Assembly (NCBI RefSeq): GCF_964204865.1
Contig: NC_135257.1
Span: 13,330,001 to 13,394,000 of the forward strand
Source: Styela clava
Lineage: Eukaryota
DNA length: 64,000 bases
Reading direction: 5' to 3'
Position 1 is the stretch's first letter; the number at the start of each line of letters is the position of its first letter. Below the pieces are notes generated by a model. It made no database searches and had not been told where the DNA came from. It saw only the letters and a list, made by a program, of their open reading frames with translations. Shown piece by piece: positions 27,876 to 59,800 of the stretch. A program made the position numbers and the translations under genes.

Positions 27876-28996
27876 TCAGAAGGGAAAAACTACTACGTGT
27901 TAAAGATTTACTAATACTTGAGATTTGCACATTGATATTTTTATCTTTTACTGATCAACTCCCTAGTTGCTTTGATCATGTTTTCGTAAATTATAATATT
28001 CGAAATAGCAGAAGTCACACTAATTTTTTGTTCGTATGTGAGAAAATCAATAGCACAAGAATCGATCACATGTTTTGATCCCAAATTGGGGAATCCACTG
28101 ACTAACAGTATTAAAAGCTTAAAAACGACGTCCAAATTTATATCAAAACTTTAAAGACATTTATTAGAATTATATTAGCTTTTGTGCAGTAAGGAAATTC
28201 TACTCTCCAGGCATTATTTTTTAGATACAAAGGGCTCTTTGATGATTGGTGTAAAAAAAGTTGAGTTAGTTACTTCGTTCAATGAGCATATATACAAAGA
28301 GTGGAAACTTCCAAATATTTGCTCATTAATCCATTGTACCCTGCATTTTTTACGTCGTTCAGCTAAATGGTTCGTTACATATGAAGAAAGCATATCGCTC
28401 GCTGCAAAAATCCCTTGCTTGGGCTGCGCCAGTCGCGAAATTGGCAGTATTGAGGCTTTTAATTTTTCGATTCGTGTTCGGTTTTGGGTTTCGAAGTATG
28501 GTACGTTGAAAGCATACTAACTATAAGCATATGCTTATTGGGAATGCATATAGCACAGAATATGAAGTCAAGTGCGGTTATTTCTGATTATAGCATGGGA
28601 TTAAGGTACAAATTTATTCATGGGAAAGGAAAGGGATAAGAAGTACTAAATATATGGCGAACCACAGCTTCTCGCAATCTTAGTTTATAAGGCACTACAA
28701 ACGAAGCCCCAAGGCTCTCCGATTTCAAATCACTCTAGCAGCCTGGGATATCTTGACAATAAAAACGAAGACAAAAGTTTGAAGAATAGCAGGGAATCGG
28801 CTTATCTTCTTTCCACTCCACATGAGTAAATATGTTAATCCCATCCTATATCAAAGAATACAAAGCCCCACGTCCCCCTTTACATGGGTCGTAACTCGTA
28901 ACGAGTGGTGGGATTCAAATTTTTTGTCAGCTGGTTCCATCACAAAAGTCATAGTTTTCGGCCGGTTCTGTTACATGTATTTTTAGTAATGCTGAC

Positions 28997-31900
28997 CAAT
29001 GACATTAAACAACATGATAGGCAACTCTGACGTCACTCCATAAGACTACATGCGAAAGATTGTATTTCATGATACGCTCCAATGCACATATTTCTCGTCG
29101 CCTTTCGCGACGGTTTTCCGCTTGCTTTTGCTACTCGGCGTCTTCTTTACATGTAGTACCTGCCTTTTTGCGCCTGTAACGAAAGAAAATAATCTCTATA
29201 TCTGAGAAGTTTTGCTCATTTGGAAAGCTGGAATGGCAGACAAGCTGTAAAGAGTAATTCTGAACATCATAGACGTTTTTTTTATCAGAGAATATTACAA
29301 ACGCGATAGCGTAAAGATTTGTGTGAAACATTTTGCAGATAATGACAAAGTTCAAAGTTAGTAATTTTAATGTTTGCGCTTAAACATTGAAATTTCATTT
29401 AAAGAGGGTGTCATACAAAACAGCAAAACTGTTTTTACTTCTCTTAAAGGTGCTGTGATACAATTCCATAACACAAAGTTTGCACCTATCGAACTTGTTT
29501 TAGTAGGTGAATTTATTAGACATATTACATATTCAGTTAATCGTAGGTAACATTACTGGTACATAATGCCTCGTAGATAGGTTTGTGTCTAAATTTAGGA
29601 ATTTAGATCATAGCCCGCCAATTAATATTATCTTCTATGCAGGAGATTGCAGGGCTGATTCAACTTGCAGCCTTACCAATCACCTGACGATGCTCATTTA
29701 GTTTGTCTCGAGCAAGTCTTCTTGAAAGACTTGTGTGAATGGAAACTACCTATATGTTTTGCCTTCCTCCGATTTTAGAAGACAAATTCAATCTGAGGAA
29801 TTTTGCATATAATTCTCATTGATTGTTGGCTGTTTATAATTCCTATTAAATGTGAATTCTGATTATATCAAAGAGTTAAACATTTTTTACGTAATTTACG
29901 GGCACTTTTTTCTTGTCAATACTCCAAGCTGAGGTAATAAGCAAGACAATACATTCATGTCATCTGCAAGCAAAACATACACACTAATTAAAAGTTTGAC
30001 ACATTGAGATAATACATCATGACAGAAAATACAAAGATACAGTATGTATGGCCATCACATGGTAATTAAAATTTAAAAAAAATTATTAGAGGCTGTGGAG
30101 TATGAAAAGTTCAAGACAAAGAAAAGAACAAAAGTGCATAGCTCATGAACTCTCAATTCTGCCTCCATTGCTTTGTGAAGGCCAATATATTCCGAGTGGC
30201 TGAATTGGTTTACCTTTATGATAGCAACGGTTTTGTATTTAATATAGCGAGATTTTTTTTCAATTTAATTGAAGTGATATTATTTCCCAAAGCAATGCTT
30301 GAACGTCTAGAATAGATCAGTGGTGTCAAACTCATGGGTTTCGAGAGCCGCATTGCATGTTGGAAATTGTAAAAAGGGCCGCAAACAGTTTTTGATGATG
30401 TATACTCGAGAGATATTTTTCAGATAGTTTTAGTTTGTGACATATATTGTGATGCAACTAATCAGTTGGATTAAGTTTTATTATTTTCTTTAATTTCAAA
30501 TGCAATTACATATTAATATTTGCATTCCACTATTATTGCAAGTTACTGTATTTATTACAAAAAATCATAAAATTCCATGTACAACCATCAAAATCATTTT
30601 TGAACAAGCCTTGGTTAAGGAAAGAATAATATATACACTAAAAATGACTCAATCTAAATATATGAACCTAAAATTAACAAAAATACTACAGTATAAACTC
30701 AATGTTTTTTTAATTACATTTGTCCTGACGTTTGGCATCTTCTTTGTGTCACCAGCATACTAAGGCCAGGCAGAAATGATTTTATAGTACCAACTCTAAC
30801 TAACGAGGTCGCATGATCATGGGTTAATCTGTATCTTTGCAAAAGTTTAATTAATTCCAGTAATGCAAAAAAGTTACTTTTATCATTTCATGTATAGATC
30901 AGTAAAAAAAACAAATGACAGATTTTTTCGACAAGACATTTCACGCTACATTGCATGGCATAGGATTGCTTGAATTATTATTGATATTGATTTTTAGTAA
31001 CTAAGTCGTTGCATATTTATATTAATATACAAACACATGGAAATTTTCTGTTCGGAGTTGGTCTTCGAATTTGTCATATTGACTGCTGAGCTTATTGTGT
31101 TTTTCATTGTACTGATGGAAATATGACAAATTAAACAATGTGCTTCAGAATTTTGTGAAATGCAGAAATATTGCAACTCCCATTTTCTTCGAAAATGCCA
31201 CCTTCTTCGTGTACTTTAATTTAATCACTCAAGTGTTTTATTCAGTATTCTTTTGCTAGCTTGATGTGTATTCTTAATTGAGTCAAAATGTGAACAAAAA
31301 ACTTTCAGTAAATTGTTTTCTGTGTGAATATTCAATTTCACTTTGAAAGGTTTGAAAAATCTTTTACATTTAAATAAAAAAAATTCCAAAATACTATTAC
31401 AATTATTGTTAAGCGTTCGAGGGCCGCACTGGAAGTTCTCTGGGGCCGCCAGTTTGACATCCCTGGTCTAGATTGAAGTTGTCCAAAATATATAACATTA
31501 TTTTATCATGAATCATGATTATACCCTTTTCTGAATTTCTTCTATAGTACTACCAAAATTTGATGAACCAAATATAACACAGGTGTAGTCAGTGAACCGT
31601 AATCCTCATTTTTCAAAGCTGTTTTAAGTATGTCTGGCATATTTTGTGCCTTTTTACAAAGAAGACCGCTTATGTAATCTTACGCTTTGGAATTTTTAGT
31701 TATTTCCCTCAAGCCCTGCAGGATGTAGGGGCCATACACAACTTTACCGGAGGGTCAAATGTCTTTGCATTCCTCCATAGGTTGTTCTTCTATTGCAAAC
31801 ATTTATAGAGTATTCTAATCATATTTCTTGGAATCAAACTGTCACTGATATGTCGCCAGACTTCTGATATCTCCCCTTCAGCTACAGTTGTCCTGTGAAT

Positions 31901-32760
31901 AAATAATAGGAAATTGAGGTTAGACGAATAGTTGAAAGTTTTGTTTTATGTCGGCCTAATTTCTTGATTGATATACTCACTATTATTGCTATTGCCTCTT
32001 GTGCTGCAGGAGTCTCACAATGCTTAGACAGGTCTGTCCACAACTTTCACATCTGTAGGAGAGGAGATGTATTAATTTTCGTTAAGAATAAATAAAGCAG
32101 TCTATATGATTCAGAATGGAAAAGCTAATAAATCCAATATCTTATGTTTTTTGTAAAAAATGTTTTACTGAATTTGGTATATAAACTAACTAATAAAGGG
32201 GTTTAGTCAGAAAATTATAAGCATTCGTGGCTCCAAATACTTGAGAGATCAGACTATACAATATAGACCGGTATGAGGAAATTTTAGGTGAACTTGTTAA
32301 CCCGTTGATTCAATACGCAAATAAAAGTGAATGAGCAATAGTATGTTACAGCAATAAGTATATATCCTCACTGATTAAAAAAATCTAAATGGAGGTGCAT
32401 GAACTATTTGAAACCATAAGGGGTAAGTAAATATGCAATTTCGGCAAATGGGCAACTACGTACCGTACTGAATTAATAACTTCGTAGTATTTGACAAAAG
32501 CTGGCTTTTCCGCGGTGTGATATACAACAATAGTATTTACCTTACTTTTTTCCGATTTATTTTTACCTTCAATTTTCCACATATCATTAAAAACCACAAC
32601 AATTGTCGAAGCAACCTCGAACACCATTCGTGCTATGCCTTGAAAGCAACACACATCCGCTCGTTTTCGTCTCGTCAAGTATGTGCATTGGAGCGTGCTA
32701 TCGAATACGATCTTCGGCCAAAAATGCCGGAGTTGCGCATCATGTTGTTTTATGTCATTG
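28997..32760 (-). mobile_element. P/Galileo-like DNA transposon, decayed, copy A
   Basis: TIR CAATGACATTAAACAACATGAT at both ends (one mismatch); 7-bp TSD tgctgac; nested hAT at 30318-31465. Strand follows the putative transposase relic. Confidence 0.8.
30318..31465 (-). mobile_element. Internally deleted Buster/SPIN-like hAT nested in copy A
   Basis: TIRs CAGTGGTGTCAAAC / GTTTGACATCCCTG; minus-strand relic KVHEEGGIFEEKWELQYFCISQNSEAHCLICH resembles the SPIN/Buster transposase N-terminal zinc finger. Confidence 0.8.
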
Positions 32761-33147
32761 TGCTGACCCATTTGCTGATTTCATTAAATTCCGTGAGACG
32801 GGCTAAATCCCACCACTGGTATTAACCCCCCCCCCCTTTTGGTTTGAGAAAAAAATTTCATGCATGTTGATAGGTATTTGTCTGTATGTCTGTCTGTCTG
32901 TTAGATTCACGCAATATCTCACGAAGGCGTGGTTGAATCTGCTCCAATTTTGCATTTTTGCATGTGCATTCATCATATCTCGGACCAGTAGCCTATTGAT
33001 TTTGGATGAATTTTGCCGTATAATTAGCGAGTTATTAATTAATTAGTGATGAAGAGATCTGGATTTTTACAAAGCGAGAGTTTTCGAGACGCGCTGTATG
33101 TGTGTGTACGTGTCCGATGCCCAAGTTTTGACGCTAGTGAGTCAGAG

Positions 33148-36100
33148 CAATGACATTAAACAACATGATGCGCAACTCCGGCATTTTTGGCCGAAGATCG
33201 TATTCGATAGCACGCTCCAGTGCACATACTTGACGAGACGAAAACGAGCGGATGTGTGTTGCTTTCAAGGCATAGCACGAATGGTGTTCGAGCCTGCTTC
33301 GACAATTGTTGTGGTTTTTAATGATATGTGGAAAATTGAAGGTAAAAATAAATCGGAAAAAAGTAAGGTAAATACTATTGTTGTATATCACACCCGGGCA
33401 TCGCACTGTTAAGTACATGCGGGAAAGCCAGCTTTTGTCAAATACTACGAAGTTATTAATTCAGTACGGTACGTAGTTGCCCATTTGCCGAAATTGCATA
33501 TTTACTTACCCCTTATGGTTTCAAATAGTTCGTGCACCTCCTAGATTTTTTTAATCAGTGAGGATATATACTTATTGCTGTAACATACTATTGCTCATTC
33601 ACTTTTATTTGCGTATTGGATCAACGGGTTAACAAGTTCACCTAAAATTTCACTCATACCGGTCTATATTGTATAGTCTGATCTCTCAGGTATTTGGAGC
33701 CACGAATGCTTATAATTTTCTGAATAAACCCCTTTATTAGTGGGTTTATATACCAAATTCAGTAAAACATTTTTTACAAAAAACATAAGATATTGGATTT
33801 ATTAGCTTTTCCATTCTGAATCATATAGACTGCTTTATTTATTCTTAACGAAAATTAATACATCTCCTCTCCTACAGATGTGAAAGTTGTGGACAGACCT
33901 GTCTAAGCATTGTGAGACTCCTGCAGCACAAGAGGCAATAGCAATAATAGTGAGTATATCAATCAAGAAATTAGGCCGACATAAAACAAAACTTTCAACT
34001 ATTCGTCTAACCTCAATTTCCTATTATTTATTCACAGGACAACTGTAGCTGAAGGGGCGATATCAGAAGTCTGGCGACATATCAGTGACAGTTTGATTCC
34101 AAGAAATATGATTAGAATACTCCATAAATGTTTGCAATAGAAGAACAACCTATGGAGGAATGCAAAGACATTTGACCCTCCGGTAAAGTTGTGTATGGCC
34201 CCTACATCCTGCAGGGCTTGAGGGAAATAACTAAAAATTCCAAAGCGTAAGATTGCATAAGCGGTCTTCTTTGTAAAAAGGCACAAAATATGCCAGACAT
34301 ACTTAAAACAGCTTTGAAAAATGAGGATTACGGTTCACTGACTACACCTGTGTTATATTTGGTTCATCAAATTTTGGTAGTACTATAGAAGAAATTCAGA
34401 AAAGGGTATAATCATGATTCATGATAAAATAATGTTATATATTTTGGACAACTTCAATCTAGACCAGGGATGTCAAACTCGCGGCCCCAGAGAACTTCCA
34501 GTGCGGCCCTCGAACGCTTAACAATAATTGTAATAGTATTTTGGAATTTTTTTTATTTAAATGTAAAAGATTTTTCAAACCTTTTAAAGTGAAATTGAAT
34601 ATTCACACAGGAAACAATTTACTGAAAGTAGTTTTAGAAAGTTAATTTTTTTTGTTCACATTTTGACTCAATTAAGAATACACATCAAGCTAGCAAAAGA
34701 ATACTGAATAAAACACTTGAGTGATTAAATTAAAGTACACGAAGAAGGTGGCATTTTCGAAGAAAATGGGAGTTGCAATATTTCTGCATTTCACAAAATT
34801 CTGAAGCACATTGTTTAATTTGTCATATTTCCATCAGTACAATGAAAAACACAATAAGCTCAGCAGTCAATATGACAAATTCGAAGACCAACTCCGAACA
34901 GAAAATTTTCATGTGTTTGTATATTAATATAAATATACAACGACTTAGTTACTAAAAATCAATATCAATAATAATTCAAGCAATCCTATGCCATGCAATG
35001 TAGCGTGAAATGTCTTGTCGAAAAAATCTGTCATTTGTTTTTTTACTGATCTATACATGAAATGATAAAAGTAACTTTTTTGCATTACTGAAATTAATTA
35101 AACTTTTGCAAAGATACAGATTAACCCATGATCATGTGACCTCGTTAGTTAGAGTTGGTACTATAAAATCATTTCAGCCTGGCCTTAGTATGCTGGTGAC
35201 ACAAAGAAGATGCCAAACGTCAGGACAAATGTAATTAAAAAAACATTGAGTTTATACTGTAGTATTTTTGTTAATTTTAGGTTCATATATTTAGATTAAG
35301 TCATTTTTAGTGTATATATTATTCGTTCCTTAACCAAGGCTTGTTCAAAAATGATTTTGATGGTTGTACATGGAATTTTATGATTTTTTGTAATAAATAC
35401 AGTAACTTGCAATAATAGTGGAATGCAAATATTAATATGTAACTGCATTTGAAATTAAAGAAAATAATGAAACTTAATCCAACTGATTAGTTGCATCACA
35501 ATATATGTCACAAACTAAAACTATCTGAAAAATATCTCTCGAGTATACATTATCAAAAACTGTTTGCGGCCCTTTTTACAATTTCCAACATGCAATGCGG
35601 CTCTCGAAACCCATGAGTTTGACACCACTGATCTATTCTAGACGATTCAAGCATTGCTTTGGGAAATAATATCACTTCAATTAAATTGAAAAAAAATCTC
35701 GCTATATTAAATACAAAACCGTTGCTATCATAAAGGTAAACCAATTCAGCCACTCGGAATATATTGGCCTTCACAAAGCAATGGAGGCAGAATTGAGAGT
35801 TCATGAGCTATGAACTTTTGTTCTATTCTTTGTCTTGAACTTTTCATACTCCACAGCCTCTATTAATTTTAATTACCATGTGGTGGTCATACATACTGTA
35901 TCTTTGTATTTTCTGTCATGATGTATTATCTCAATGTGTCAAACTTTTAATTAGTGTGTATATTTTGCTTGCAGATGACATGAATGTATTGTCTTGCTTA
36001 TTACCTCAGCTTGGAGTATTGACAAGAAAAAAGTGCCCGTAAATTACGTAAAAAATGTTTAACTCTTTGATATAATCAGAATTCACATTTAATAGGAATT

Positions 36101-36944
36101 ATGAACAGCCAACAATCAATGAGAATTATATGCAAAATTCCTCAGATTGAATTTGTCTTCTAAAATCGGAGGAAGGCAAAACATATAGGTAGTTTCCATT
36201 CACACAAGTCTTTCAAGAAGACTTGCTCGAGACAAACTAAATGAGCATCGTCAGGTGATTGGTAAGGCTGCAAGTTGAATCAGCCCTGCAATCTCCTGCA
36301 TAGAAGATAATATTAATTAGCGGGCTATGAGCTAAATTCCTAAATTTAGACACAAACCTATCTACGAGGCATTATGTACCAGTAAAGTTACCTACGATTA
36401 ACTGAATATGTAATATGTCTAATAAATTCACCTACTAAAACAAGTTCGATAGGTGCAAACTTTGTGTTATGGAATTGTATCACAGCACCTTTAAGAGAAG
36501 TAAAAACAGTTTTGCTGTTTTGTATGACACCCTCTTTAAATGAAATTTCAATGTTTAAGCGCAAACATTAAAATTACTAACTTTGAACTTTGTCATTATC
36601 TGCAAAATGTTTCACACAAATCTTTACGCTATCGCGTTTGTAATATTCTCTAATAAAAAAAAAAACGTCTATGATGTTCAGAATTACTCTTTACAGCTTG
36701 TCTGCCATTCCAGCTTTCCAAATGAGCAAAACTTCTCAGATATAGAGATTATTTTCTTTCGTTACAGGCGCAAAAAGGCAGGTACTACACGTAAAGAAGA
36801 CGCCGAGTAGCAAAAGCAATCGGAAAACCGTCGCGAAAGGCGACGAGAAATATGTGCATTGGAGCGTATCATGAAATACAATCTTTCGCATGCAGTCTTA
36901 TGGAGTGACGTCAGAGTTGCCTATCATGTTGTTTAATGTCATTG
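33148..36944 (+). mobile_element. P/Galileo-like DNA transposon, decayed, copy B (inverted relative to A and C)
   Basis: Same 22-bp TIR, perfect; 7-bp TSD gtcagag; nested hAT at 34465-35630; spliced-looking transposase relic around 33330-34405. Confidence 0.8.
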
Positions 36945-37256
36945 GTCAGAGCGATAGATACACATTACACACCGCTAGATCATATCTCGTGATTAATCTT
37001 TAAGTATAGAGGGTCAACATAGAGATGCCACTCTGTGTGACGTCATAGGTTCCGCATGAGTAACGAGGTATGAACTTCTCAGCTTTCCATTTGCCACCAA
37101 ATATTTAAGCCGAACGTTTGTTTGTTGCGACAAGCTACGCGTATTTCTAAGTTATTTATGGTTAGCACTCTAAAATCAAGTTGCGGTAGATCAAGTTGCG
37201 GTATTTATGTCACAGACTGTGAACTGACACAGTACCTACGGTACCGTAAGTTACTG

Positions 37257-40200
37257 CAATGACATTAAACAACATGATAGGCAACTCTGACGTCACTCCA
37301 TAAGGCTACGAGCGAAAGATTGTATTTCATGATACGATCCAATGCACATATTTCTCGTCGCCTTTCGCGACCGTTTTCCGCTCGCTTTTGATACTCGGCG
37401 TCTTCTTTACGTGTAGTACCTGCCTTTTTGCACCTGTAACGAAAGAAAATAATCCCTATATCTAAAAAGTTTTGCTAGCTTGGAAAGCTGGAATGGCAGA
37501 CAAGCTGTAAAGAGCAATTTTGGACACCATAGACGTTTTTTTTTTATCAGAGAAGATTACAAACGCGATAGCGGAAGGATTTGTGTGGAACATTTTGCAG
37601 ATAATGACAAAGTTCAAAATTAGTAATTTTGATGTTTGCGCTTAAACATTGAAATTTCATTTAAAGAGGGTGTCATACAAAACAGCAAAACTGTTCTTCC
37701 TCCCCCTAACGGTGCAGTGATACAATTCCATAACACAAAGTTTGCACCTATCGAACTTGCTTTAATAGGTGAATTTATGATACCGTATGAACATATTGCT
37801 TCGTAGATAGGTTTGTTTAAATTTAGGAATTTAGCTCATAGCCCACTAATTAATATTATCTTCTATGCAATAGTTTAACAGGGCTGAATTCAACTTGCAG
37901 CCTTACCGATCACCTGAAGATGCTCATTTAGTTTGGCTCGAGTAAGTCTTCTTGAAAGACTTGTGTGGATGGAAACTACCTATATATATTTTGCCTTCCT
38001 CCGATTTAAGAAGACAAATTTATTCTGGGGAATTTTGCATATAATTCTCATTGATTGTTGGCTGTTTATAATTCCTATTAATTGTGAATTTTGATTATAA
38101 CAAAGAGTTAAGAAAAATTTTACGTAATTTACTGGCACCTTTTTCTTGTCAATACTCCAAGCTGAGGTAATAAACAAGACAATACATTTATGTCATCTGG
38201 AAGCAAAAAGTGCACACTAATTAATAGTTTGACACATTGAGATAAAACATCATGACAGAAAATACAAGTTAAAGATATGTATGACCATCACATGGTAAAT
38301 AAAATTAAAAAAAACTAAGAGGGGCTGTGGAGTATGAAAAGTTCAAAACAAAGAAAAGAACAAAAGTTCATAGCTCATGAACTCTCAATTTTGCCTCCAT
38401 TGCTTTGTGAAGGCCAATATATTCCAGTGGCTGAATTGGTTTACATTTATGAGAGCAACGATTTTGTATTTAATACAGTGAGATTTTTTTCAATTTAATT
38501 GAAGTGATATTATTTCCCAAAGCAATGCTTGAATCGTCTGGAATAGATCAGTGGTGTCAAACTCATGGGTTTTTGAGAGCCGCATTGCATTTTGGAAATT
38601 GTAAAAAGGGCCTCAAACAGTTTTTGATAATGTATATTTGAAAGATATTTTTAAGATAGTTTTATTGTGATGACACCAAACAGTTGGATTAAGTTTTATT
38701 ATTTTCTTTAATTTCAAATGCAATTACATATTAATATTTGCATTCCACTGTTATTGCAAGTTACTGTATTTATTATAAAAAATCATAAAATTCTATGTAC
38801 AACGCTCAAAATCATTTTTGAACAAGCTTTGGATAAGAAAAGAATAATACATACACTAAAAATGACTTACGGTAATCTAAATATATTGACCTAACAATGT
38901 GCTTGAAAATTTTGTAAAATGCAGAAATATTGCAACTCCCATTTTCTTCGAAAATGCCACCTTCTTCATGTACTTTGCGTTTAATTTAATCACTCAAGTA
39001 TTCTTTTGCTAGCTTGATGTGTATTCTTAATTGGGCCAAAATGTGAACAAAAAATAAAATAATTTTCCAAAACGACTTTCAGTAAATTGTTGTCTGTGTG
39101 AATAATCAATTTCACTTTGAAAGGTTTAAAAAATCTAATACATTTAGATAAAAAAAAAACTTCCAAAATACTATTACAGTTATTGTTAAGCGTTCGAGGG
39201 CCGCAGTGGAAGTTCTCTGGGGCCGCGAGTTTGACATCCCTGGTCTAGATTGAAGTTGTCTAAAATATATATAACAGTATTTTATCATGAATCACGATTA
39301 TACCCTTTCCTGAATTTCTTCCATAGTACTACCAAAAGTTGATGAACCAAAGAACCATTTTCCAAAGCTGTTTTAAATATGTCTGGCGTGTTTTGTGTCT
39401 TTTTACAAATAAGATCGCTTATGCAATCTTACGCTTTGGATTTTTTAGTTATTTTCTTCAAGCCCTTCAGGATGTGGGGGCCATACACAACTCTACCGGA
39501 GGGTCAAATGTCTTTGCATGCCTCCATAGGTTGTTCTTCTATTGCAAACATTTATGGAGCACTCTAATTATATTTCTTGGAATCACACTGTCACTGATAT
39601 GTCGCCAGACTTCTGATATCTCCCCTTCTGCTATAGTTGTTCTGTGAATAAATAATAGGAAATTGAGATTAGACGAATAGTTGAAAGTTTTACTTTATGT
39701 CGGCTTAATTTCTTGATTGATATACTTACTACTTTTGCTATTGCCTCTTGTGCTGCAAGAGTCTCACAATGCTTAGACAGGTTCGTCGACAACTTTCACA
39801 TCTGAAGAAAGATAGGAGATTTATTCATTTTCGTTAAGAATAAATAAAGCAGTCTATATGATTTAGAATGGGAAAGCTAATAAATCCAATATCTCATGAT
39901 TCATGTAAAAAATGTTTTACTGAATTTGGTATATAAACCAACAAATAAAGGGGTTTAGTCAGAAACTTACAAGCCTTCGTGGCTCCAAGTACTTGAGAGA
40001 TCAGATTATACAATATAAACCGGTATGAGTGTAATGTTAGGTGAACTTCTTAACCTTTTGATTCAATACGCAAATAAAAGTTAATGCGTAATAGTATGTT
40101 AGACCAATGAGTATATATCCTGACTGATTAAAAAATCTAAATGGAGGTGCATGAACTATCTGAAACCATAAGGGGTAAGTAACTATGCAATTCCGGCAGA

Positions 40201-40543
40201 TGGCCAACTACGTACCGTACTACGTACCGTGTTTAATAACTTCGTAGTTGTTGACAAAAGCTGGCTTTCCCACATGTACTTAACAGTGCTATGCCCGTGT
40301 GTGACATACAACAATAGTATTTACCTTACCTTTTTCCGATTTCTTTTTACCTCAACTTTCCAAAATTTCATTAAAATCGACAACAACTGTCAAAGCTGGC
40401 ACGAAAACCATCCGTGCTATGCTCGAAAGCAGCACACATCCGCTCGTTTTCGTCTCGTCAAGTATGTGCATTGGAGCGTGCTATCGGATACGATCTTCGG
40501 CCAAAAATGCCGTAGTTGCGCATCATGTTGTTTAATGTCATTG
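37257..40543 (-). mobile_element. P/Galileo-like DNA transposon, decayed, copy C (more diverged, internal deletion)
   Basis: Same 22-bp TIR; 7-bp TSD gttactg; nested hAT at 38549-39242 lacks ~450 bp present in A and B. Confidence 0.8.
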
Positions 40544-40576
40544 GTTACTGACAGTAGAGTAATTATCATATTCAGG

Positions 40577-40738
40577 GGTTCCATTTCATTTGAACCAACG
40601 ACAATTGCACCTATGGAATTTTATTTTTACGGATATTTGAGCCCATACTAACCCTAACCCATGGATTTTAACACCCTCATATAGATTGAACTCACGGATA
40701 TACGGGTGCATATGTATGGGTTCAAATGTACGTTCACC
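40577..40738. mobile_element. Short MITE with 9-bp TSD (Mutator-like)
   Basis: GGTTCCATTTCATTTGAACC...GGTTCAAATGTACGTTCACC; perfect TSD atattcagg. Confidence 0.8.
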
Positions 40739-43700
40739 ATATTCAGGTATTGTTATCTCATTTTCCGTACGGTATCTGGCTATTTTGCTTCCAGGCCCAT
40801 ACCCAGTTACCACAGTATTCTTGGCAAATTGTATCTAATCTATTTACCAGTACCGATACAATTCTAATCGTACTAGAATAGGAATCCGTTATTTCAACTT
40901 TTGTGAAGAAGGGACGACAGTTTCGAGAAGCAAATCAAGCATTTGTGGTATCAGAGATAGAGATTTATTATTCGTCAACCAGAAAAACAAGCATTGCAGC
41001 AATAAAAGCAAAGTTATTTGGTATAGCTGTATAAACTGGGAGGAGCGATACGACCATACGGTCATCAGAGTCAGCTCCCGCCATTTTTACTATTTTATAT
41101 TATGTATATGAGAGTGGCGGTTATGGTGTACGAAATGGGGGCGCTAACTGTCGGAGAGTTATCTACAAGACATTTTGAGGTTCGGTTATAAAATCATAGG
41201 GTTTTGTACCCAAATCGGTCGAGTATTACTGTATTATAGGATTGGTATAGATCTAGGGTTCCGTCCCTTATCCACTGTTTTTTTTTCTATTACAGAAGAC
41301 TATCTACCAAATACTGTTCTACTATTGAATAAATTGTTTTTTTTTCAAATCAAAATATAAGTTGATTACAAATCGATGGATATATGCTTGGGGGTTATTA
41401 TGAGCCATAGGGAGAGTTGAGGAGGTTTGGTCAATCTTGATATTGTATATATGTATGTACTTGTATTTTACAAGTTTCTCCTCCATTTTGGGCGGCCATT
41501 TCGCCGCTTAACCTTCTTAATTAAACCAAAGATACAAACCCGCGACTTTGTACCACCGAACGGCCCACGCTGAGATAGAGATCTCGCTTAAAAAGGCATC
41601 GCATTCCCTACTTCCGTACCTCTTTACTCATGTGGAACGACCCTTGAACCCGCCAGTGAATTCTCCATTGTCATTCTCTGTGCTTTAAGCATTGTCCATA
41701 TCTCTCTTGTAACTTTGACGTCGTCGCGATGCGCAAGTTTCCTTCGAGAAATTTTCCACGCTATTGAGTCAGAGCGAAGGATACACGCCGCGAGATCGTA
41801 TCTCGTTACTTATAATTACTCTTTAAAGTTTAAGCAATGTCCACATCTCTCTATCAGGTTCGGGGTTGCAGAATTCCTCACCAAAATATTGCTAGGCTGT
41901 GTTTGAATAGCCGTCGCAACCCGGGTTAGCGCCGTTGTATTTAACCCAAAAATATAGGATTGGTAAATATGCTATTGGCTGGAAACTAATCGAAACAATC
42001 CAGTTCGGATTTGCAGAATTCTTCATAAAAGTATTTCCTCGAGTAGTATTTCGACGACGACATGGGGAGTTGGCTATTGTTTCCTACATTTTTGATATTG
42101 GCTGAAAACTATTCAAAACAATCCAGTTCGGGTTTGCAGAATTTTTCGAATCGAAACCGAAGTTTCTGTTCTGGTGGATCCCCTAACTTTCGATCGATAA
42201 GTCTTCGGTCTCTGACCGATGTTCTCGTTTTTTTAGTTGGCGCTGATAATGACAAATAAGAATGCGTGATTGTTGATTGTTATTCAGTAACCGCCGTTAT
42301 GGCCGTACGAAATGAAAGAAGGGTTATGAGCTAATTTCAGGACATTTTCTTCCCGATTTCTTTTATTTTAATACAAAGCAGGGCGCGTTGAAAAGCAAAA
42401 TAGAATTTATTAACATAAATTTACAACGAGTTACGTAAAATTTACCGACGTAAAATTTACCAACAGACAGAAACGATGAATGTTAGAATTTTTTATTTTG
42501 TGTCATTTTTGCGCCATCATAGTTTTCAATTTCTAATTTTTTGTAAATGGCGTCAACATCGTTTTTGTAAATTTAGAAACGTTGAATCAGCTAAGCAAGG
42601 CATGTGAATAATGTATTCTATGCAAATTTTCCGAGATATTGCGGAGAAATAATATTTTGACCACGTAGAAATGCCATTATTGCTGATTTATTCACGTGTT
42701 AAGTATCAGTGTTTTAAACCAAAGCTGAGTTACGTGAATATTCAACACTGAGTATTCTAGAGATTACCAATTTGCGGAGTTTTTTAGTTATTATTTAATA
42801 TGAAAGTAACACGGAAACGATATAAAATTAAAACATAAAAATGTCAACTATCAGCTTCACAAATATCGCATCCCGGGGTCAGTAATGATAATATTGTTTG
42901 CTCAAAATTGGGACCGTAACTGTGATACAAATCCAACACAGAAGATAAAAATCAGAACAAAATTAATTTTTGTTGTGAATACATTCCTTAATAGTTTTTA
43001 ACATCTTCGCCGATGTTCGTTAAAATATTCGAATAAATTTATATAAAAATAATTTGGTTTACTGGGCATCCAAATCAACAGTATCTATATATATGACTAT
43101 ATGAAGGATCGTTAAAATTGAATAATATACATGCAAAAATCATAATTGATAACAAAATGTACTCTAAATAATAAAATAAAAAACAAACTTTTTTGTGTAA
43201 ATTCACAAGACATGAAAATGGCAAATTTTAAATTTCAATGTCAAGGTATCCCAGAGTAATTTATAGTTAAAATCAGTATTTTTATTTGAGTATACGAATA
43301 GCTCACAAAGTCCAGGCAGCCTGGGGGTTTATGTGTGAGCAATTTCGCACTTGATCCAGCTGAAACAAGGGATTTTTGCAGCGAACGATGTGCTTTCTTA
43401 ATATGCAACGAACCATTTAGCTGGACGACGTTAAAATGCAGGGAACAATGGATTAGTGAGCAAATATTTGGAAGTTTCCACTCATTGTATATAATATGCT
43501 CATTGGACGTGGTAACAATAAACTCCACACAATAGCGCCTACGAAATTGACCTGCATTTTATGCCAGACTCTATTGCTCTCATTACCTTTTTCGCATACA
43601 ATTTATGATTAACAACTCGAGTGTAAACAAAGAATTTCTACATATGTCGTTTATTGTTTACCTCATTAGAACCTAATCCTTTTGTGTCGTGGTCCCACCC

Positions 43701-47064: not shown

Positions 47065-47475
47065 GTTGTAGGCTATTTCGGCTTTGTTAAGTTGTTCTTG
47101 ATGATTTTGCATGTTGCATAAAAATCATAGATCGTATTTAGCTTTGAAATAAAAACTTTGTATGCCTGTAGACTATGCTGGAGTTTCATTAATAACATTC
47201 AGACATTCCTTCTGTATCGAAAGATTGATGATGTGTATTTTGCGAGTTTTGTGATTGAGGTATTCAGTTATTGTTCTGTATATTGGACTTTCATTGCCGC
47301 ATGGAACATTTATTATTTTAACTTATTTGAATCTGTAAATTGCAATTAACCAGATAATATTAATTTTTTGCTGTGAAATAAAAAAAAAATTGAGTTTTTT
47401 CACTCGAATTGCCTATTACTACTGTACTATTTTGTAGAATCAGACTTACTGTTATAGTATTATAATTACGAACCA

Positions 47476-49689
47476 ATGTCCGGAAAATCATCATTAGAAT
47501 CAAGTGATATCGTTGGTCATTTGGATCCATACATAGAACATTTACGGAAAAAATATCTTGAAAGAAATGATGACACTGATGTAAAGGTTTTGGAAACAAC
47601 CGATCAGAACACAACTGACAATGAACCATTTTCCCATCTACCTCCCAATCCATCTCTGACAGAAAGTGAGCGCAAACACTACAATCGTGCAATGAGAGAA
47701 TTAGGAAAAGCGTTGAAACTGAGTGAAAATAATTTGAGAAGTTCAATTGCCGAGTTTGAGAAAAGTGTTGTTCCTACTGACGAAGACAAACGAACTTCTA
47801 CAGGCTCTGGAGATCGTCAATGTGCTGCTACTATTACTGATGAAACAACAAATCAAGATACAGCTGCGGATAGCGAAAGTGATGCTTTAACATGGCCAAC
47901 TACTTTGCCGTCTACAATACCTATAGCATCGAAAAAAATCCCATCTTCTTCATCAGAATGCTGGGAAACTATAATTCCATCATCGTGGAATGATCAAACA
48001 ACATTATCTGGATTATCGCGTCAGTTCAATTCGTGTGCCGAACCGGATAAAATTTCTGCTGTTGATGTAAAAGCAATATACTCTGAGCTGATGGGCATTT
48101 ATCAAAAACTTCTTACTGAGAAAAGTAGAATAGCTGAGCAACAAATGATCGAAAATAGACTGGAACAAAATTTTGAAAGCCAAGAGAAGGAACTTGCAAT
48201 TAGAGAAGCTTTTTTGCTTGAAAAGGAAAAAGAGTTATTGGAAAGAGAACGTTCACTTTCTCTCGGACTACAGAATATGAAAAGAACAAAAGAGATTGCC
48301 GCTAAATTAGAAGGTGTAGAACTTGAGGTCCAAGAAAGAATTGACCTTTTACAGCAAGGTCATCAATTAGAGGTTGAAAGACTGAATGCAGCATTGCTTG
48401 AAAAGTCTTGTGAAGTCAAACGTGTGAGAACTTCTTTCAACATGATGAAGGACCAAAATGACGAATTTAGAAATAAACTGTCAGCTCTGGGTTTTGAAAA
48501 TCAAAAACTGAAAAATCTGAACTCGAAATTAACTAAACGGCTGGAAAATCTTCAGAGAAGACAAGATTTTAGAGCATGCAAACCTACTCATATTGTTTCC
48601 GGGAATGCAAAGTTTGAGAAAGAAAATGTTGCAAAGCAGTTTCCATCAACAATGAAGAGAATTTCGGAAAAAGCTTCTCCTAAGCAGTTTGTAGGAATGC
48701 TTGAAGCATTGTCAGTAACATTTGATTGGTTATCAGAAGTCCATTTGAAGAGATGTGACACTAATGACATGGCCATTTCAATCAGTGTAGAATATGCTGT
48801 TGATAAATGTCTTAAAATCCTCCCACTACTTGTGGATGTGGTGAAAATCCTACCTAGTTATTCAACACAGAAAAAACATCATTTATCAATACTTTCATTT
48901 GTCTATCTCTGTTTGTGTCGCATCGATGAATCACAAAATGCATTGTTGTCTTCAACAACACGTAGACTAGGTGATGAGCTATACAAACCTTCTCATGGAG
49001 TTTTGAATTCTCGAAAAGCTTCGTCAGCCTCTCTTATACTGGCAACAACTGCTTCATCTACTGCAGTTGACAGTATACAGAGTCTTAGTTTTGGAGAAAA
49101 AGCGCAAGAATTTGCTTCTGATAATTCTGTATATTTTCGTAGCAATGTTCCTGAAATTAGGCTTCTTAGTTGCTTTATTGTTTTAAAGACCTTACATCAA
49201 GTTGATGTATTAGCTCATGTTTTTGGTCAAATGAAGAAGGATTTGAAAAATGAAAATAACAGAAAAATATTTTTGGATTACAATGCAACTCATATTGTTC
49301 TGCCTTATGTTACATACAGAGCAAACAAAGCACTGATAGGAGATGCAATCGATGTCATTCTACAAATGTCAATGGAGTCTGCATTGTTGCCCGCATTCCT
49401 TGAACAGTGCAGCACAGAACAATGGTTCCGCACATTTTCTTCTACACTTAGGAGCGCCATTGGCTCTCTTGATAAAAGTTCATCACCAAACACAGTTATA
49501 ATCGAAAAATTAAGCATTATTCTTCAAAAATTATCGAAAGTAAAGACCAATCGGAAATATTTTGATGCTTTCTCGATGGGAAGGAATTTGCAAGAATGCT
49601 ATAGAACTTGTGATCCTAAAAATACATTTCTTGTTCTTAACTTGAGATCTATTTTATTCAATCTCAACTTACTCAAAGACAATTCCTAA
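47476..49689 (+). CDS. CCDC138: Coiled-coil domain-containing protein 138-like, single coding exon (737 aa)
   Basis: Long ORF with IYSELMGIYQKL, a central coiled coil, STTRRLGDELYK, RLLSCFIVLKTLHQVDVLAHVF and C-terminal IEKLSIILQKLSKVKTNRKYFD...FLVLNLRSILFNL, recalled as CCDC138 motifs. Confidence 0.85.
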   Translation: MSGKSSLESSDIVGHLDPYIEHLRKKYLERNDDTDVKVLETTDQNTTDNEPFSHLPPNPSLTESERKHYNRAMRELGKALKLSENNLRSSIAEFEKSVVPTDEDKRTSTGSGDRQCAATITDETTNQDTAADSESDALTWPTTLPSTIPIASKKIPSSSSECWETIIPSSWNDQTTLSGLSRQFNSCAEPDKISAVDVKAIYSELMGIYQKLLTEKSRIAEQQMIENRLEQNFESQEKELAIREAFLLEKEKELLERERSLSLGLQNMKRTKEIAAKLEGVELEVQERIDLLQQGHQLEVERLNAALLEKSCEVKRVRTSFNMMKDQNDEFRNKLSALGFENQKLKNLNSKLTKRLENLQRRQDFRACKPTHIVSGNAKFEKENVAKQFPSTMKRISEKASPKQFVGMLEALSVTFDWLSEVHLKRCDTNDMAISISVEYAVDKCLKILPLLVDVVKILPSYSTQKKHHLSILSFVYLCLCRIDESQNALLSSTTRRLGDELYKPSHGVLNSRKASSASLILATTASSTAVDSIQSLSFGEKAQEFASDNSVYFRSNVPEIRLLSCFIVLKTLHQVDVLAHVFGQMKKDLKNENNRKIFLDYNATHIVLPYVTYRANKALIGDAIDVILQMSMESALLPAFLEQCSTEQWFRTFSSTLRSAIGSLDKSSSPNTVIIEKLSIILQKLSKVKTNRKYFDAFSMGRNLQECYRTCDPKNTFLVLNLRSILFNLNLLKDNS

Positions 49690-50272: not shown

Positions 50273-53200
50273 ATGGCATCAAATGTTGCAGCTGAAACCT
50301 CAAATCAATCTAGTGCTCTCCTTGAGCCAGATTCGAAAGAGACTCACAGTGCCATGAGCGGATTACTAGACACTGATGATTTGATCAGTGGCGTAAGTGA
50401 CCTCACAGAACGAGATATTTCTAGAGCTGATAATCAGACCAATAAACATGGTAATTGAAGTATAATAATGGATTATTCTCTATTTTAAGTTGCTTCTAAT
50501 ATAAATTTTCTTGCTATTAACTGGTGCTAGGGCATCCTTGGTGATTCTGGTAGTAACCTAATAGAATGACAGAAATAGATGAAGTAGACATTCTGAAGTG
50601 GGCAATATAGAAGGCTATATTATATACTTGTTGCAATGACTGTGTATATTTATCCCTTGGTATTTGATAAATTTTATGTCTGCATTGCCTTATCTACTTG
50701 TTATCAGTCTGATTATAAATTTTATAAAACAATAATTGTTCTATATATTTAATATTTATTTTTCATTAGGACGTGTTTCACGACACGAGTTTGAAAGAAA
50801 ACAAATGGTTCATGATCTTCAATTACTTCGAATTGAATTGTCTCAGAAAAATTTAGTTATCGATAACATGAAAGCAGATCATATGAGCAAGGTAGAAGAA
50901 CTTGAAGAAAGACTGAATGACACACTGCATAAAAGACAGGTAAAGAACACCATAGCCATAGTATCTATAAAACCATTATTATTACTGTACTTCCCAGAAA
51001 AAAAGATCCAACAAGAAGTTGCATGATGGTTCCAATAATTTAATAAAATTCCTTCTAGATTGTAGAACCTGGTATACCCCCTTGGGACTCTTGGTATCTA
51101 ATTTTTATGTTTATCGCAGATTCTGCAAGCAAGACTGGAAAGTGCATTAGCAATTCAGCAAGATGAAGCTCGAAATAGGCAACAACAAACCCAGAAAGAA
51201 CTAAAAATTATATTGGAAAGGTATTCACATTTAAATACAATGATAGGTTGTTGAATTACTCTATACTCGGACTATTTGGCAGTTGAATGACTCGTTACTC
51301 AAACAATTCGGTAGTCTACCAAAAAATTCCAGTCAAAAATTCTTCGGTACTCAAACAGAAATTCGGTGCTCGAACACCTAAGCATGCAGCCGAGTGAGAT
51401 AAAGTCATTTGGCCACGCATTCCGGCGACCCACATTATGTTTGATTTTCGTTATGTACCTATTTAAATAATTATTGTTGTTTAGGTACACGTTTTGTCAA
51501 TATTTTGGGTATTTCGGAATGCGTAAGAACGAATTAAAATAATCACCATTGTTACGGCACGGCAGTAAAAGTTTCAGTACTTGAACAAACAGCAGCATAA
51601 TGCCATGTAGTGAAAAAGCTAAAACGGCTAGTAATACAAAATCAGTTAATTCAGATAATGCAACATGAAATCAATCTAATAATTTATGGAAAAAATCCTG
51701 TAACATTTTAAGAAAGTGGAATCTTGTTATACACTTCAAGCATAATTATGAGTTTACATTCTAAAAATCTGTTAAAATATCATTTGAATTTACAGGCAAC
51801 AAGAACTTGAAAATGTGAATAAAAGACTTCAAGCAAAAGCATCTGACATTCAGTATCAGCTCCAGAGAGATGTTCAGATATCGGAGGAAGAATATATTGA
51901 GTTAAAATCGATGCCTCCCAATAAGTTGTCTCTCAAAGAATTCTTTTCCATGAGGTACAGAGTGTAGAGAAATTAAAAACACCATCAGTCAATAGCTTGT
52001 AAGAATGACTTACATTTTCCTAATCAATGACTAACTGTAGAATCAGTAGCCTATGCGACTTACATTGAAATCCATTATCTGTTCATACAAAATAATAAAA
52101 TCAAATCCAACCACAACAGCAATTTATTTGGTACCAATAAGATCTCAGCTGGGCAGTAAGCACAAGCTCTTTCAAAAAGATGTTGAAGTGGTCTGACGTC
52201 ACAGGACTGTCACGTGGTGGTGTAATATTCACAAAATAGCAAAATTTTGGCTGAAGTATCAGGCTCAGAGAAATTTGAAATAAAAATTAGCTTTTTATTG
52301 GCTCAAGCCATATCTAGCTACATTTAATCAAAATTTTGGGTGTATCAGGCTCGGAGGAGTTTAAAAAAAATGAATCTTTCCAATGGCTTGAGCTATATTT
52401 AAAACTGAAAGTTTGAAAATAATTGGTCTAATAAATTTGGAGAATAACCATTTTCTTCCAACAATAAATGTCACCCCCCAAACAGCAACAATTCAGCAGA
52501 ACATTCCTTGTGTGCAATTCATGTCCAGTAGTACACTGCGATGTCTATAACTTCCATGATTGATTTTGATAGGGAGAAAATAGGTCTACACTGAAATTTA
52601 GTCATTGATCACTATTGAAATATTGAACTTTAGTTATTGATATCATCATTCATCACATTTTTGTCTAAACCTCTTCTTTCTAAAAACTCTAAACCTGTAT
52701 TTGATTGCTTTCAGAATTTATGAAGTGATGTCACCAATTCGAATTGAATGCATCAATTTACGTGAACAACGGGATAAATTGTCAGTTGAAATTGCACAAC
52801 TAAATCACAGGTTGAATAGCACAGAGCAAAATTTAATGCAGGTTTGTAGATTTAAGATACAGTGGTACCTCCGTAATCTAACGACTCTATACTCGAACAA
52901 TGGGTAGTCCACCAAAAAAACGCATCTCAGCTGCCTCTTGACCATTAAACAAAATAGCAATGCTTAAATATAATATGTTCGAAAAGGCCAAAACGAAGTA
53001 GTAATCTGTGCAATGCAATCTGTAGATTACCGGTGTGGCAATCTTCATGACTAATGCGAAAGCGGAACTGCAACAAGGTGCGAAGTATTTGATATCATTG
53101 CACACAAAAACAAATCCCATAGAGCCCACAAAAATTTGCTCAAACATACAGTAACTGATACAAGATTTTTGATATTTTTATCCTTATAATGTTTGATCTT

Positions 53201-55758: not shown

Positions 55759-56814
55759 GTGATTTGTATGTAAATTTGACTTGAATGTCGTGTGTTTTTG
55801 CAGAGTCTTATATTTTCGGCGAGTTTTCCATAATGAAGATAATTTTGGTCAATGGCCCAGCCATGAAGGGGGTTTACGTATGCGAGAGGTGTTATTTAGG
55901 GCGTAAACACCTTGTTGGTGGTTATTCTCCCTAAATCACAAATTTCAGACAAATTTGTGCCCCACAACGATGATAATTTCTTTATTTTTGTACTTGCAAA
56001 GAATTATGAATCCGGTGAGAGTTATTATACATTCATCGGCGGCGAGATGTTATAGCAAATAAAGGAGTGAATCCACGCCGAAAAAAATACCAAAAATAAA
56101 ACCGTAAACAATATAAGTTTTGTTGTGGGAGGCCCGCGACAGATTAAAAAAAACTTTTATAGGTATTATGTTTGGTCGGCGTAGGGAACCATATCGTCAC
56201 TAAAATCAAAACACAGTCAATTGTGAGCGGGATTTACCTTTTTATTCATTAGTCATTACTTCAAATTGCTGTTGAAAATTTTTGTGTTAACATTATACAA
56301 GGCTGGAAACACGACTTTTTCCCGATTTTTGATGATATTCAAGATAATTAATTAAACTGTATTCAATCAATTTTTATTGTACTAAAATAAATTTTACTTC
56401 ATCAGATTTTATAGCAGACTTGAGATTTAGCTGATTTTTCTAACGGTTTTATGATTTTATCTTGAAAATAATCTGAGTAGCAGCATTGCGATAGAGCGGA
56501 GTCAGTGTTGCAAGTACAGATCAGATTTGTTGAATTCGAAAAATGGCAAAAATACTTATTAAAACTAGATATAATCAGGCAGTTTACCATGCATTTTTAT
56601 CTCCCCGGATTGCCGTGGTATTTTAGAGCAGTGATGCTTTTATTTTGTCAACGCAACCGCATGTTAAATTGAAGACAATGAAATTAATACAGCAAGACAT
56701 TTTAAACATGCCCGTATCGGTCCTGGATTGATTACTTTGCACAACAGGAAAATCTTGATTATCCGTCGAAAAAGTCATTCCGCTGGGATTTTGAGGCGAT
56801 TAATATTTATTTTT

Positions 56815-59800
56815 ATGTACTGATATACTTTATATGTATTTACCTGTACTCTACAGGATTTTATTACAGATCTTGAGATTTTTCTAACGACGATAACGAA
56901 TTAGCATGATCTCGAAAATAAGTATCAAAACTATATATAATTAGGCATGTTTATCTCATATTTTTATGTCAACAGATTGACGTGGTATTTTAGAGTAGTA
57001 ATGTTCTTATTTTGAAGCAAAAAGACGCAAACGCGAGTTAAGTTGGCCACAATTATATTGATATAGAAATGAATTTTAGATTCTCGTAGCTGTCATGAAT
57101 TGAATATGTTACGCGACAAAAAAGTCGATATGCGCTGAAATAGTCGGCTATGTTACCGAACGCGTAATTGCGACGACTGTTTCAGAAGGAAATGGGAATT
57201 TCCGATTTTGAAAATTGAGTGAAATAAACCTTATATTTGTCAAGGTTAGCATTATATTTTAAGGCTGCTGAAACTTAGTTATGAAAACTACAGAATTACA
57301 TTTTTTCATGACCCTGAAAACTTCTAGGGTTGGTTGGTGAGTTATCCAAATCTACAGCAATTCATGATATTTTATAATTCTGTTATGAATAGTTTCAACG
57401 TGAAAGTCTATACTCTACAGATATTTTAGCAATAATAGTTAAATCGGAAGTGTGCAATTGACATTCTTACTTATCCATGTCATAGAACAGACTGTCTGTT
57501 CATGTTTTGCATTCTGTAGGCTACATATATTTGTGCACTTGATGATGTTATATTTTTTAAAGGAGGCAATGTGAAAACATATTTTTTTTGTTCATACTGT
57601 CTGGCTATCATGCATTGTTCCTTGGAGGCATAAGAGAGCAATAGATTCACATTTCCAAGAATATGTTTATTCATTTGTGCTTCATCCAATCCTTTTTCTG
57701 TACAAATATGTAGAATTCTATCATATTCTAATTTTTGATGTTTTATCATTGTAGTGCTATTTACACACACTCATACAATTACAAATAGAGGCTTCACTAT
57801 ATATATATATATATATACTCTATCTAATGTACTGTGATATCCACCCCCAAAATATCAAACCACTATATTTTTGTTTAAATCTATTAACAATGAACTAAAT
57901 TTTTATCTTATCTTATCAAATTGTGAAGGATAAAAATGAATTCCTCTAGTTTCAAATTGCAAACAATAGCGTTGAAACATTTGCATCATGTCTTCATTGT
58001 ATAATTTATAACTTGAATATAGCACAACATAATAACAATGAAACTGAAAGAGACATGGCATAAGACCTAATATTATATATATAAAAGTACTCCAGTAGTT
58101 TTCTTACTGTTTTTATTTTTTTCTAGAATATAATAGTTGTACTAAATAGTATACTGCAGTATTATAATTCTTTTTAAATAGATATTTGTTCATCGTTATA
58201 CCTCAGTATTGAATGATCTTGTCACTTCAAACTTTCCATCAACTCTGGATTTTCAACCGTTTTGGAAGGATAAAGTTGTACAATGATTCCTTTCTCAATG
58301 AGTTTGTTCCACATTAAACTAATTTGATGAATAGTTGGATTCAGGGTTGGAAATGCCACCCAGACAACCCATTCATCTGAAAAGATATTGATCCGATATC
58401 ACTACTGATATAAATCGCTCTAGGAATCTACACATATTCAATTGGTTTGTGTCACTTTTTTGAAATTTTGAAAGATTCGTTGTCTTATGTATAGCCTGGA
58501 GAGGAAAAAATAGTTTAGTCCGGTATTGCAGTTTTATAGTTGGTTGCTTTTCCCCCAATTTCCTTATGTGCAATGTGGTGCTACCTCCACTGGTGAGCAG
58601 GCATTCCTTGTGAATGAACGTCCTTGAATGTTTTTAAGTGGGTGATTTTAATTACTTACCGTACTCTTGAGTGAGTTTAATCCCTTATATTGTGAGTTCT
58701 ACCAATGCTACTGAGAGTAAATTGTCATTGAAACTAAATGAAAAGCGGAATAAAATACCTGAAAGACTGCAGAATGCATTGACCAAAAAATTCTTTTCGT
58801 CACATAGAGACAGAATATCACCATTGAATAAGGCATCATCTGAATATTAAAATGTTTTAACTTTTGGATTGTCAAATTTATTTTACCATTGCCAATTTAA
58901 TCTGTAAATTCAATTATACATTACCTATTTTTTTCGCTTTATCATTTGTTCCTCCATCTGGTGTTAGAGTGTGAGAAGCCAAAAAAGCTTGCTCTGTATC
59001 AAATAATTGAATTTTTCATTTCATTTTACCTATATAGGTATATTTAAAAATAATACCTTCGCTCTTTTTCCCATAATAAACGCCGTCTCTTCGTTTGGTC
59101 TTATGACTTGTAAAGGTTTGGGGAGGAGAACTGAAATAAAGTAAAATGTACAATTACATATCTTCTGGTTTTGAATGCAGCTTTGATTTGGGTTAAACAC
59201 TGAATAGTCTGATCTTTCAATTCAAATGTAACTGAATTCACTTGTATACTTTAGTTTGAATATTGCAGTGTCAAATCATTGCTTCGTTTTTTTTTCAACT
59301 TTTTTCAGTTTATTTGAAATAAATTATAAACATACTTTTCATGTAAATCAGTAATCACAATTCGCATTCCTTCATTTGTATTAGAGATATTCTGAAATTT
59401 TGCACCTATAACATCTTTTTTCATGATCTCATCGTTGGTGTGTAGCACCATATACCAGTCATTCTTTACCTGCGCACAATAATAAGAAAGCCGAGTTCAG
59501 TGAAGATGTTGAAATCTCCAGATATATTATTGTGAGATGAATGTATTTGAAGTCCTAATGTTGTTTTAATCAAATTTTTGAAAAAAAGTGTAAGCGGATA
59601 ATGAATGTTTCATACATATTAAAAATTGATTGAAGGTTAAGGCTTTACTATTTACCTAATTATATACATACCTTATCCCAGTCGATATCTTCATTGTTCT
59701 CTGGAATTTTACATTTTTTTGCCTGGTTAATCTCGATGCCTATAGCAAGCATCAAAAGTGAAATCCACAATATGTTCCTCAAGGCCAACATTTCATTTTA

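Follow-up and report, generated by a model that had tools for sequence, protein, structure and literature searches.

The window analysed here, a stretch of 64,000 nucleotides of the Styela clava genome (G000:C9:13330001-13394000), contains three non-autonomous transposable elements whose common TIR is perfect over 22 bp and imperfect over 31 bp:

28997..32760, plus strand, copy 1, non-autonomous element of 3764 bp, TSD TGCTGAC at 28990-28996 and 32761-32767
33148..36944, minus strand, copy 2, non-autonomous element of 3797 bp, TSD GTCAGAG at 33141-33147 and 36945-36951
37257..40543, plus strand, copy 3, older non-autonomous element of 3287 bp, TSD GTTACTG at 37250-37256 and 40544-40550

An earlier note on this DNA had described three copies of 3.3-3.8 kb with a common TIR and had read them as independent transposition events; both points are borne out. 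Six TIR matches lie in the window (five exact, one with one mismatch), against 0.01 by chance, and the three TSDs are all perfect at 7 bp and all different. The copies are separated by 387 bp (copies 1 and 2) and 312 bp (copies 2 and 3), and copy 2 is inverted relative to the other two. Identity is 98.9% between copies 1 and 2; copy 3, which has an internal deletion of 464 bp, is about 92% identical to either. Copies 1 and 2 each have an empty paralogous site in which the target stands once (in L051 and L205, respectively), and both are therefore true insertions and not the products of a segmental duplication; as the origin of the cluster, the latter is ruled out by the different TSDs, the empty sites and the differing nearest relatives of the copies.

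None of the copies codes for a transposase, and Pfam searches of 19 short ORFs within them returned nothing meaningful. Comparison by tblastn with the two genes of a probable parent element elsewhere in the genome, the only means by which they were recognised, revealed gene relics in each copy, listed here together with the subterminal motif and the hAT-like inserts:

29074..29090, plus strand, subterminal 17-bp motif of copy 1, candidate transposase (THAP) binding site
29210..29367, plus strand, transposase exon 1 (THAP) relic, copy 1
36571-36731, minus strand, transposase exon 1 (THAP) relic, copy 2
37470-37629, plus strand, transposase exon 1 (THAP) relic, copy 3
29662..29782, plus strand, catalytic-domain exon relic, copy 1
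36156-36276, minus strand, catalytic-domain exon relic, copy 2
37892-38017, plus strand, catalytic-domain exon relic, copy 3
30154..32051, minus strand, gene-2 relic (C2H2 finger and CTD-like), copy 1, convergent and split by a hAT-like insert
33879-35795, plus strand, gene-2 relic, copy 2
38386-39800, minus strand, gene-2 relic, copy 3
30318..31465, no strand assigned, hAT-like insert of about 1.17 kb within the gene-2 relic, copy 1
34465-35630, hAT-like insert within the gene-2 relic, copy 2
38549-39242, hAT-like insert within the gene-2 relic, copy 3

Identity to the parent transposase is 64-72% for the THAP-exon relics (E 2e-6 to 7e-11) and 62-71% for the catalytic-domain exon relics (E ~1e-8); the main blocks of the gene-2 relics are 46-85% identical to parent gene 2 (best E 6e-21). 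Relics of both parent genes, convergent as in the parent, are thus present in all three copies; the earlier note had missed these, as well as the two-gene parent itself. The insert of about 1.17 kb, which from its terminal motifs we take to be hAT-like, occurs in most copies of the family (of 75 copies, 71 have its left end and 68 its right end), indicating that the family amplified after losing coding capacity. A solo relative of this insert lies near 1800-2440 of the window. The 17-bp motif occurs near both ends in all three copies and in the parent, at a distance of 78 bp on the left and 65 bp on the right. By analogy with the subterminal sites of the fly P element, which likewise stand at unequal distances from the two ends (PMC7776569), it is a candidate binding site for the transposase through its THAP domain.

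A genome-wide TIR search and a TSD logo, both suggested by the earlier note, place the three copies in an abundant family, referred to here as family A. The TIR pattern has 940 exact matches in the 377 Mb genome (reversed control, 0), corresponding to about 470 non-autonomous elements, mostly of 3.7-3.8 kb. In 56 end pairs, three from the window and 53 from fetched loci picked among the listed matches, the TSD was a perfect 7 bp in 54, 8 bp in one (locus L048) and rearranged in one. The symmetrised target is T-n-R-[GTYWRAC]-Y-n-A, a 13-bp palindrome around the TSD, to which the target of copy 3 conforms poorly (1.9 bits). TIRs ending in CA...TG together with 7-8-bp TSDs are features of the P superfamily. 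The features compared here do not establish the narrower attribution to Galileo. As described for Galileo and 1360 (PMC4168063, PMC3698922), those elements share with family A a 7-bp TSD, a palindrome extending beyond it and rare 8-bp TSDs, and the consensus target of Galileo, GTANTAC with a longer palindrome (PMC4168063), is similar though not identical to GTYWRAC. In contrast, Galileo and 1360 are described as intronless and the TIRs of Galileo as long (PMC4168063, PMC3698922), whereas family A has TIRs of 22/31 bp, which are not of the long foldback-like kind (those of its sister, family B, reach about 440 bp), seven introns in a transposase gene of eight exons, and a second gene of three exons.

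A P-transposase profile search of the genome gave at least 44 matches, among them the probable parent, an element of 10,154 bp at G000:C18:4775463-4785616 with the TSD GTCAGAC and a TIR that differs from that of the window family at two bases. It contains two intact, spliced, convergent genes (with predicted GT-AG sites): an open transposase gene encoding 856 aa and, on the opposite strand, an open gene 2 encoding 310 aa with a C2H2 finger. The transposase exceeds the Pfam cut-off for PF21787 (E 5e-20), PF21788 (E 6e-13) and PF21789 (E 5e-6) and has the RNase H-like DDE domain with GTP-binding insertion that characterizes the P superfamily, with a catalytic triad of D461, D552 and E794; taken with the CA...TG ends and 7-bp TSDs, this bears out the assignment to P made in the earlier note. 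We count the N-terminal THAP domain as present, although exon 1 of family A falls below the Pfam cut-off (E 5e-4, 21.2 bits versus 23.9); in family B, the domain is over it (E 6e-6). The stop codon follows only 62 residues past E794, and Pfam finds no THAP9_C in this protein, in contrast to the one-gene P of the same genome. Instead of a single gene with a fused CTD, as in canonical P and THAP9, the element has its CTD homology in the antisense gene. The gene models are consistent with an NCBI protein that is 98% identical to gene 2, has the same exon junctions and carries the label Styela clava, in accord with the tunicate host surmised in the earlier note, and with assembled contigs from four runs of two studies, none recorded as RNA and only guessed to be so, in which intron 1 of gene 2 is joined in three of the four, intron 2 in all four and transposase exons 2-3 in one.

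The earlier note had proposed a search for an autonomous THAP-P transposase copy with a matching TIR, and the C18 element, as a probable helper, comes near to this description. The non-autonomous family is 68-81% identical to it in scattered blocks, which makes it a relative and probable helper rather than the direct source; no intact copy closer than the C18 element was found among the scored candidates, the counts of which are lower bounds. In all seven non-autonomous copies checked in which the two ends carry different TIR variants, the TSDs were perfect, which suggests that one enzyme reads both variants. At G000:C18:4785617-4785623, a non-autonomous copy abuts the parent head-to-head, the TSD being shared three times. 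The L001-L007 family (e.g., G000:C13:4852267-4854732) is distinct from these; it is a young P/THAP9-like family with a single gene, long open frames and a fused CTD. It is the most intact P family of the genome, and no credible match between it and the window element was found.

What gene 2 encodes is indicated by several comparisons. Its product aligns with the C-terminus of the one-gene P transposase of this genome (28% identity over 88 aa, E 6e-7), and a profile of 93 gene-2 sequences had a single match in the PDB, chain B of 6P5A, the Drosophila transposase (E 9.8e-11). In an AlphaFold model of gene 2 (pLDDT 82.6), residues 150-287 align to fly residues 617-734 of the same chain, which is the top structural match (Z 9.5, rmsd 2.7 over 112 residues; next Z 7.0); Foldseek alone also ranked it first, but with an E of 0.39. 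The C-terminal half of gene 2 thus matches the fly CTD, including its terminal basic helix. A profile search found 184 relatives of gene 2; among the best 150, 149 are at most 437 aa long, many with an N-terminal C2H2 finger, though some of the short ones may be fragments, and a few relatives are C-terminal parts of one-gene P transposases. None was found in viral contigs. Of 12 one-gene transposases, 10 are matched by the gene-2 profile at their C-terminus; of 16 split-type transposases, none is matched. The split-type transposases form a single branch (support 100/99) in a tree rooted at its midpoint, without an outgroup and with sampling anchored on the split-type clade. The dN/dS of gene 2 is about 0.11 for one unsaturated pair (dN 0.23, dS 2.19), most other pairs being saturated.

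A parent transposase without a CTD, combined with a CTD supplied by the facing gene, would work as a two-part enzyme, and a two-subunit transposase is the simplest reading of these sequences. The catalytic protein would bind the TIRs and the subterminal motif through its THAP and HTH domains and would use its DDE triad for cleavage. The product of gene 2 would dock at the position of the fly CTD, holding transposon and target DNA. Alternatively, one could envision gene 2 as a regulator, such as a repressor or titrating DNA-binding protein, or as an accessory, with the truncated transposase acting alone. Gene 2 does encode a zinc finger of its own as well as an additional helical domain, separate genes permit separate expression, and a conserved basic tail of the transposase might stand in for the basic helix of the CTD. 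Yet the fly CTD, attached by a flexible linker, lies between the subunits and contacts both transposon and target DNA, its basic helix pointing at the target centre (PMC7776569); gene 2 keeps this helix, and the loss of the CTD from the transposase coincides across the clade with its gain as a separate gene, so we regard a purely regulatory or accessory role as unlikely. A predicted complex of the transposase core with gene 2 scored 0.00, in a run that used no alignments and in which the fold of the partner was uncertain.

The convergent two-gene layout is not peculiar to family A. Three further families in this genome have it. Family B is a second two-gene P family, whose element at G000:C19:15766263-15774775 has TIRs of about 440 bp and a 7-bp TSD. 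It adjoins a family-A copy at a common 7-bp site (L035), and on both C2 and C1 it has inserted into family-A copies of the two-gene type. In a metagenome sample of 60 loci, 14 were informative in that they included the 3' end of the transposase and at least 1 kb downstream; an antisense gene 2 followed the transposase in nine of these, no gene 2 was seen in five, and a CTD in the sense orientation was found in none. Two of the metagenome loci comprise complete elements, bounded by TIRs and 7-bp TSDs. Named relatives of the CTD-less transposase come from Ciona (where the protein model stops short of the catalytic Glu and is perhaps incomplete), a gorgonian coral and thrips, and those of gene 2 from two snails.

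The surroundings of the three copies are composed of nested older repeats, framed by arms of family B:

28280..28665, plus strand, long-TIR arm of family B, left of the cluster, 75-88% identical to the TIR of the C19 element
32864..33147, plus strand, dispersed repeat, target of copy 2, continuing at 36952-37007 and 41683-41839
37005..41682, no strand assigned, further insertion carrying copy 3, direct repeat CTTTAAG at its bounds
43340..43505, minus strand, opposite family B arm, on the right side of the cluster, 87% identical to the TIR of the C19 element

The flanks of the left and right arms show no TSD match. An uninterrupted paralogue of the dispersed repeat hit by copy 2 is present in L205 (87-96%). 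The insertion at 37005-41682 has a 7-bp direct repeat at its bounds and weak inverted ends; it may represent another P-like element, the third here, or one that targets TTAA. No long ORF lies between 26.1 and 47.4 kb of the window, and Rfam gave no match at 26.0-47.5 kb. Elsewhere in the window are a single-ORF IFT46-like gene at 4330-5418 (plus strand, PF12317), a single-ORF CCDC138-like gene of 743 aa at 47458-49689 (plus strand, Pfam PF21035 and PF21037), an exon at 50736-51026 (plus strand) that presumably resembles PIBF1/CEP90 and has no Pfam match, and local duplicated blocks at 56810-63872 (2.1-4.7 kb spacing, 60-98% alike).

The earlier note had held that the cluster exceeds chance and had offered local hopping or an insertion hotspot as its cause. 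The excess is real: with uniform placement at 1.25-5 copies/Mb, about 0.0001-0.002 triples with both gaps below 400 bp are expected per genome. For all 442 exact TIR matches (about 254 elements) of C1-C5 plus the initial 18.8 Mb of C6, we compared the gaps with uniform and locally jittered placement. Gaps of 7 bp were observed 5 times versus 0.01 expected, and gaps of 13-500 bp twice versus 0.19-0.33 (p 0.02-0.05, from few events). For 0.5-2.5 kb, 2 were observed versus 0.8-1.4; for 2.5-10 kb, 3 versus 2.9-5.2; for 10-50 kb, 19 versus 15-25; and for 50-200 kb, 47 versus 49-63, so that on C1-C6 copies do cluster at the shortest ranges but show no excess 2.5-200 kb apart. A further tandem came to light on inspection, as did two gaps of about 140 bp and five true self-nestings; variant TIRs had masked some of these. 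Genome-wide, all 12 TIR junctions within 12 bp are at exactly 7 bp and represent 12 same-site tandems, direct and inverted, with one TSD at the junction and partners mostly unrelated, the pattern of double insertion into one target. The window's own three copies, 312-387 bp apart, include no such tandem. At L142 (G000:C9:590640-600299), at least three copies stand in direct tandem with one 7-bp TSD per junction and partners 93% alike, possibly the start of a transposon-derived satellite.

If the copies had arisen from one another by short-range transposition, neighbours should be kin. Copies 1 and 2 are indeed nearly identical and inverted, fly P elements prefer hops of 50-150 kb (PMC7776569), and a pair at L040 (99.7%) are mutual nearest relatives. 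Yet copy 1 groups with copies on C8, C2 and C5 (99.3-99.5%, support 0.996) and copy 2 with others on C8 and C16 (99.2-99.3%, support 0.992); in a sample of 75 copies enriched for copy 2 relatives, copies 1 and 2 rank only 6th and 7th for each other and copy 3, whose best identity to any sampled copy is 93.4%, ranks 60th and 73rd, and neighbouring copies are nearest relatives in only 2 of 19 pairs. With no excess of gaps at 2.5-200 kb on C1-C6, we consider local hopping very unlikely. Kinship and gap statistics together point to a short-range hotspot filled by separate donors, and it is in this sense, at very short range only, that the hotspot of the earlier note survives.

A less active process, in which copies simply build up in repeat-rich DNA that tolerates them, without being drawn to particular sites or resident copies, is a possibility of some weight, though not the one we favour. 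All three copies lie in older repeats, the region around them is empty of long ORFs and Rfam matches, and true self-nesting is modestly raised (5 events versus 1.5-2.8 overlaps expected); but the same-site tandems, both on C1-C6 and genome-wide, go beyond what tolerance alone would produce, and broad tolerance would give an excess at 0.5-200 kb that is not seen. We thus conclude that, quite probably, independent insertions of an abundant non-autonomous P family make up the cluster. Their mobilisation in trans is likely due to a parent with two genes, in which the CTD is likely a separate protein. The copies would have come from different donors and on separate occasions, landing at preferred 13-bp target palindromes among stacked older transposons, where insertions are tolerated; the family at times also takes one target twice and lands a few hundred bases from residents above chance.

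ProtoRAG, Harbinger and Kolobok likewise have two genes within one TIR pair, convergent in ProtoRAG, but their second genes are unrelated to the transposase, whereas gene 2 here is a piece of the ancestral transposase. The P element of Drosophila melanogaster is alike in its THAP and HTH domains, split RNase H domain with GTP-binding insertion and DDE triad (PDB 6P5A; PMC7776569), and in its short CA...TG TIRs, unequal subterminal sites, palindromic target and homologous CTD fold; it differs in having one gene, a fused CTD and an 8-bp TSD (PMC7776569), in contrast to the two convergent genes, the CTD on a zinc-finger protein and the 7-bp TSD found here. In the P-element literature that we examined, the transposase is one polypeptide throughout. 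Tandem dimers of fly P elements are described with one TSD per junction, both orientations and unrelated partners (McGurk and Barbash, bioRxiv 10.1101/158386), whereas our data come from one assembled tunicate genome and include a triple array and tandems between families. The cluster and the tandems are known behaviour, the cluster being ordinary for a hotspot. We searched the literature for P elements that are split or have two genes, also among the transposons of Styela clava, and found none; these searches covered papers rather than repeat databases such as Repbase and Dfam, so that a description in a database may exist. As far as these searches reach, the two-gene P layout is new within a known superfamily, and new here are also an intact, spliced tunicate parent, its target motif and the cluster statistics.

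This architecture, with the CTD encoded apart from the transposase, has a parallel in the two-gene RAG transposon, and through it many animal proteins of 200-400 residues that lacked a name (184 relatives) acquire an identity. It may be that an animal-wide P clade has an obligate two-subunit transposase, in which the zinc-finger/CTD subunit captures the target, sets the 7-bp spacing and draws insertions to occupied sites; we regard this broader proposal as evenly balanced. With the division falling naturally at the flexible linker that precedes the CTD, what this domain contributes to target capture and to TSD length can be tested directly. If the two-subunit model is true, the tunicate parent and its several hundred passengers would constitute a test system for it, and P transposition would be retargetable by altering one small subunit.
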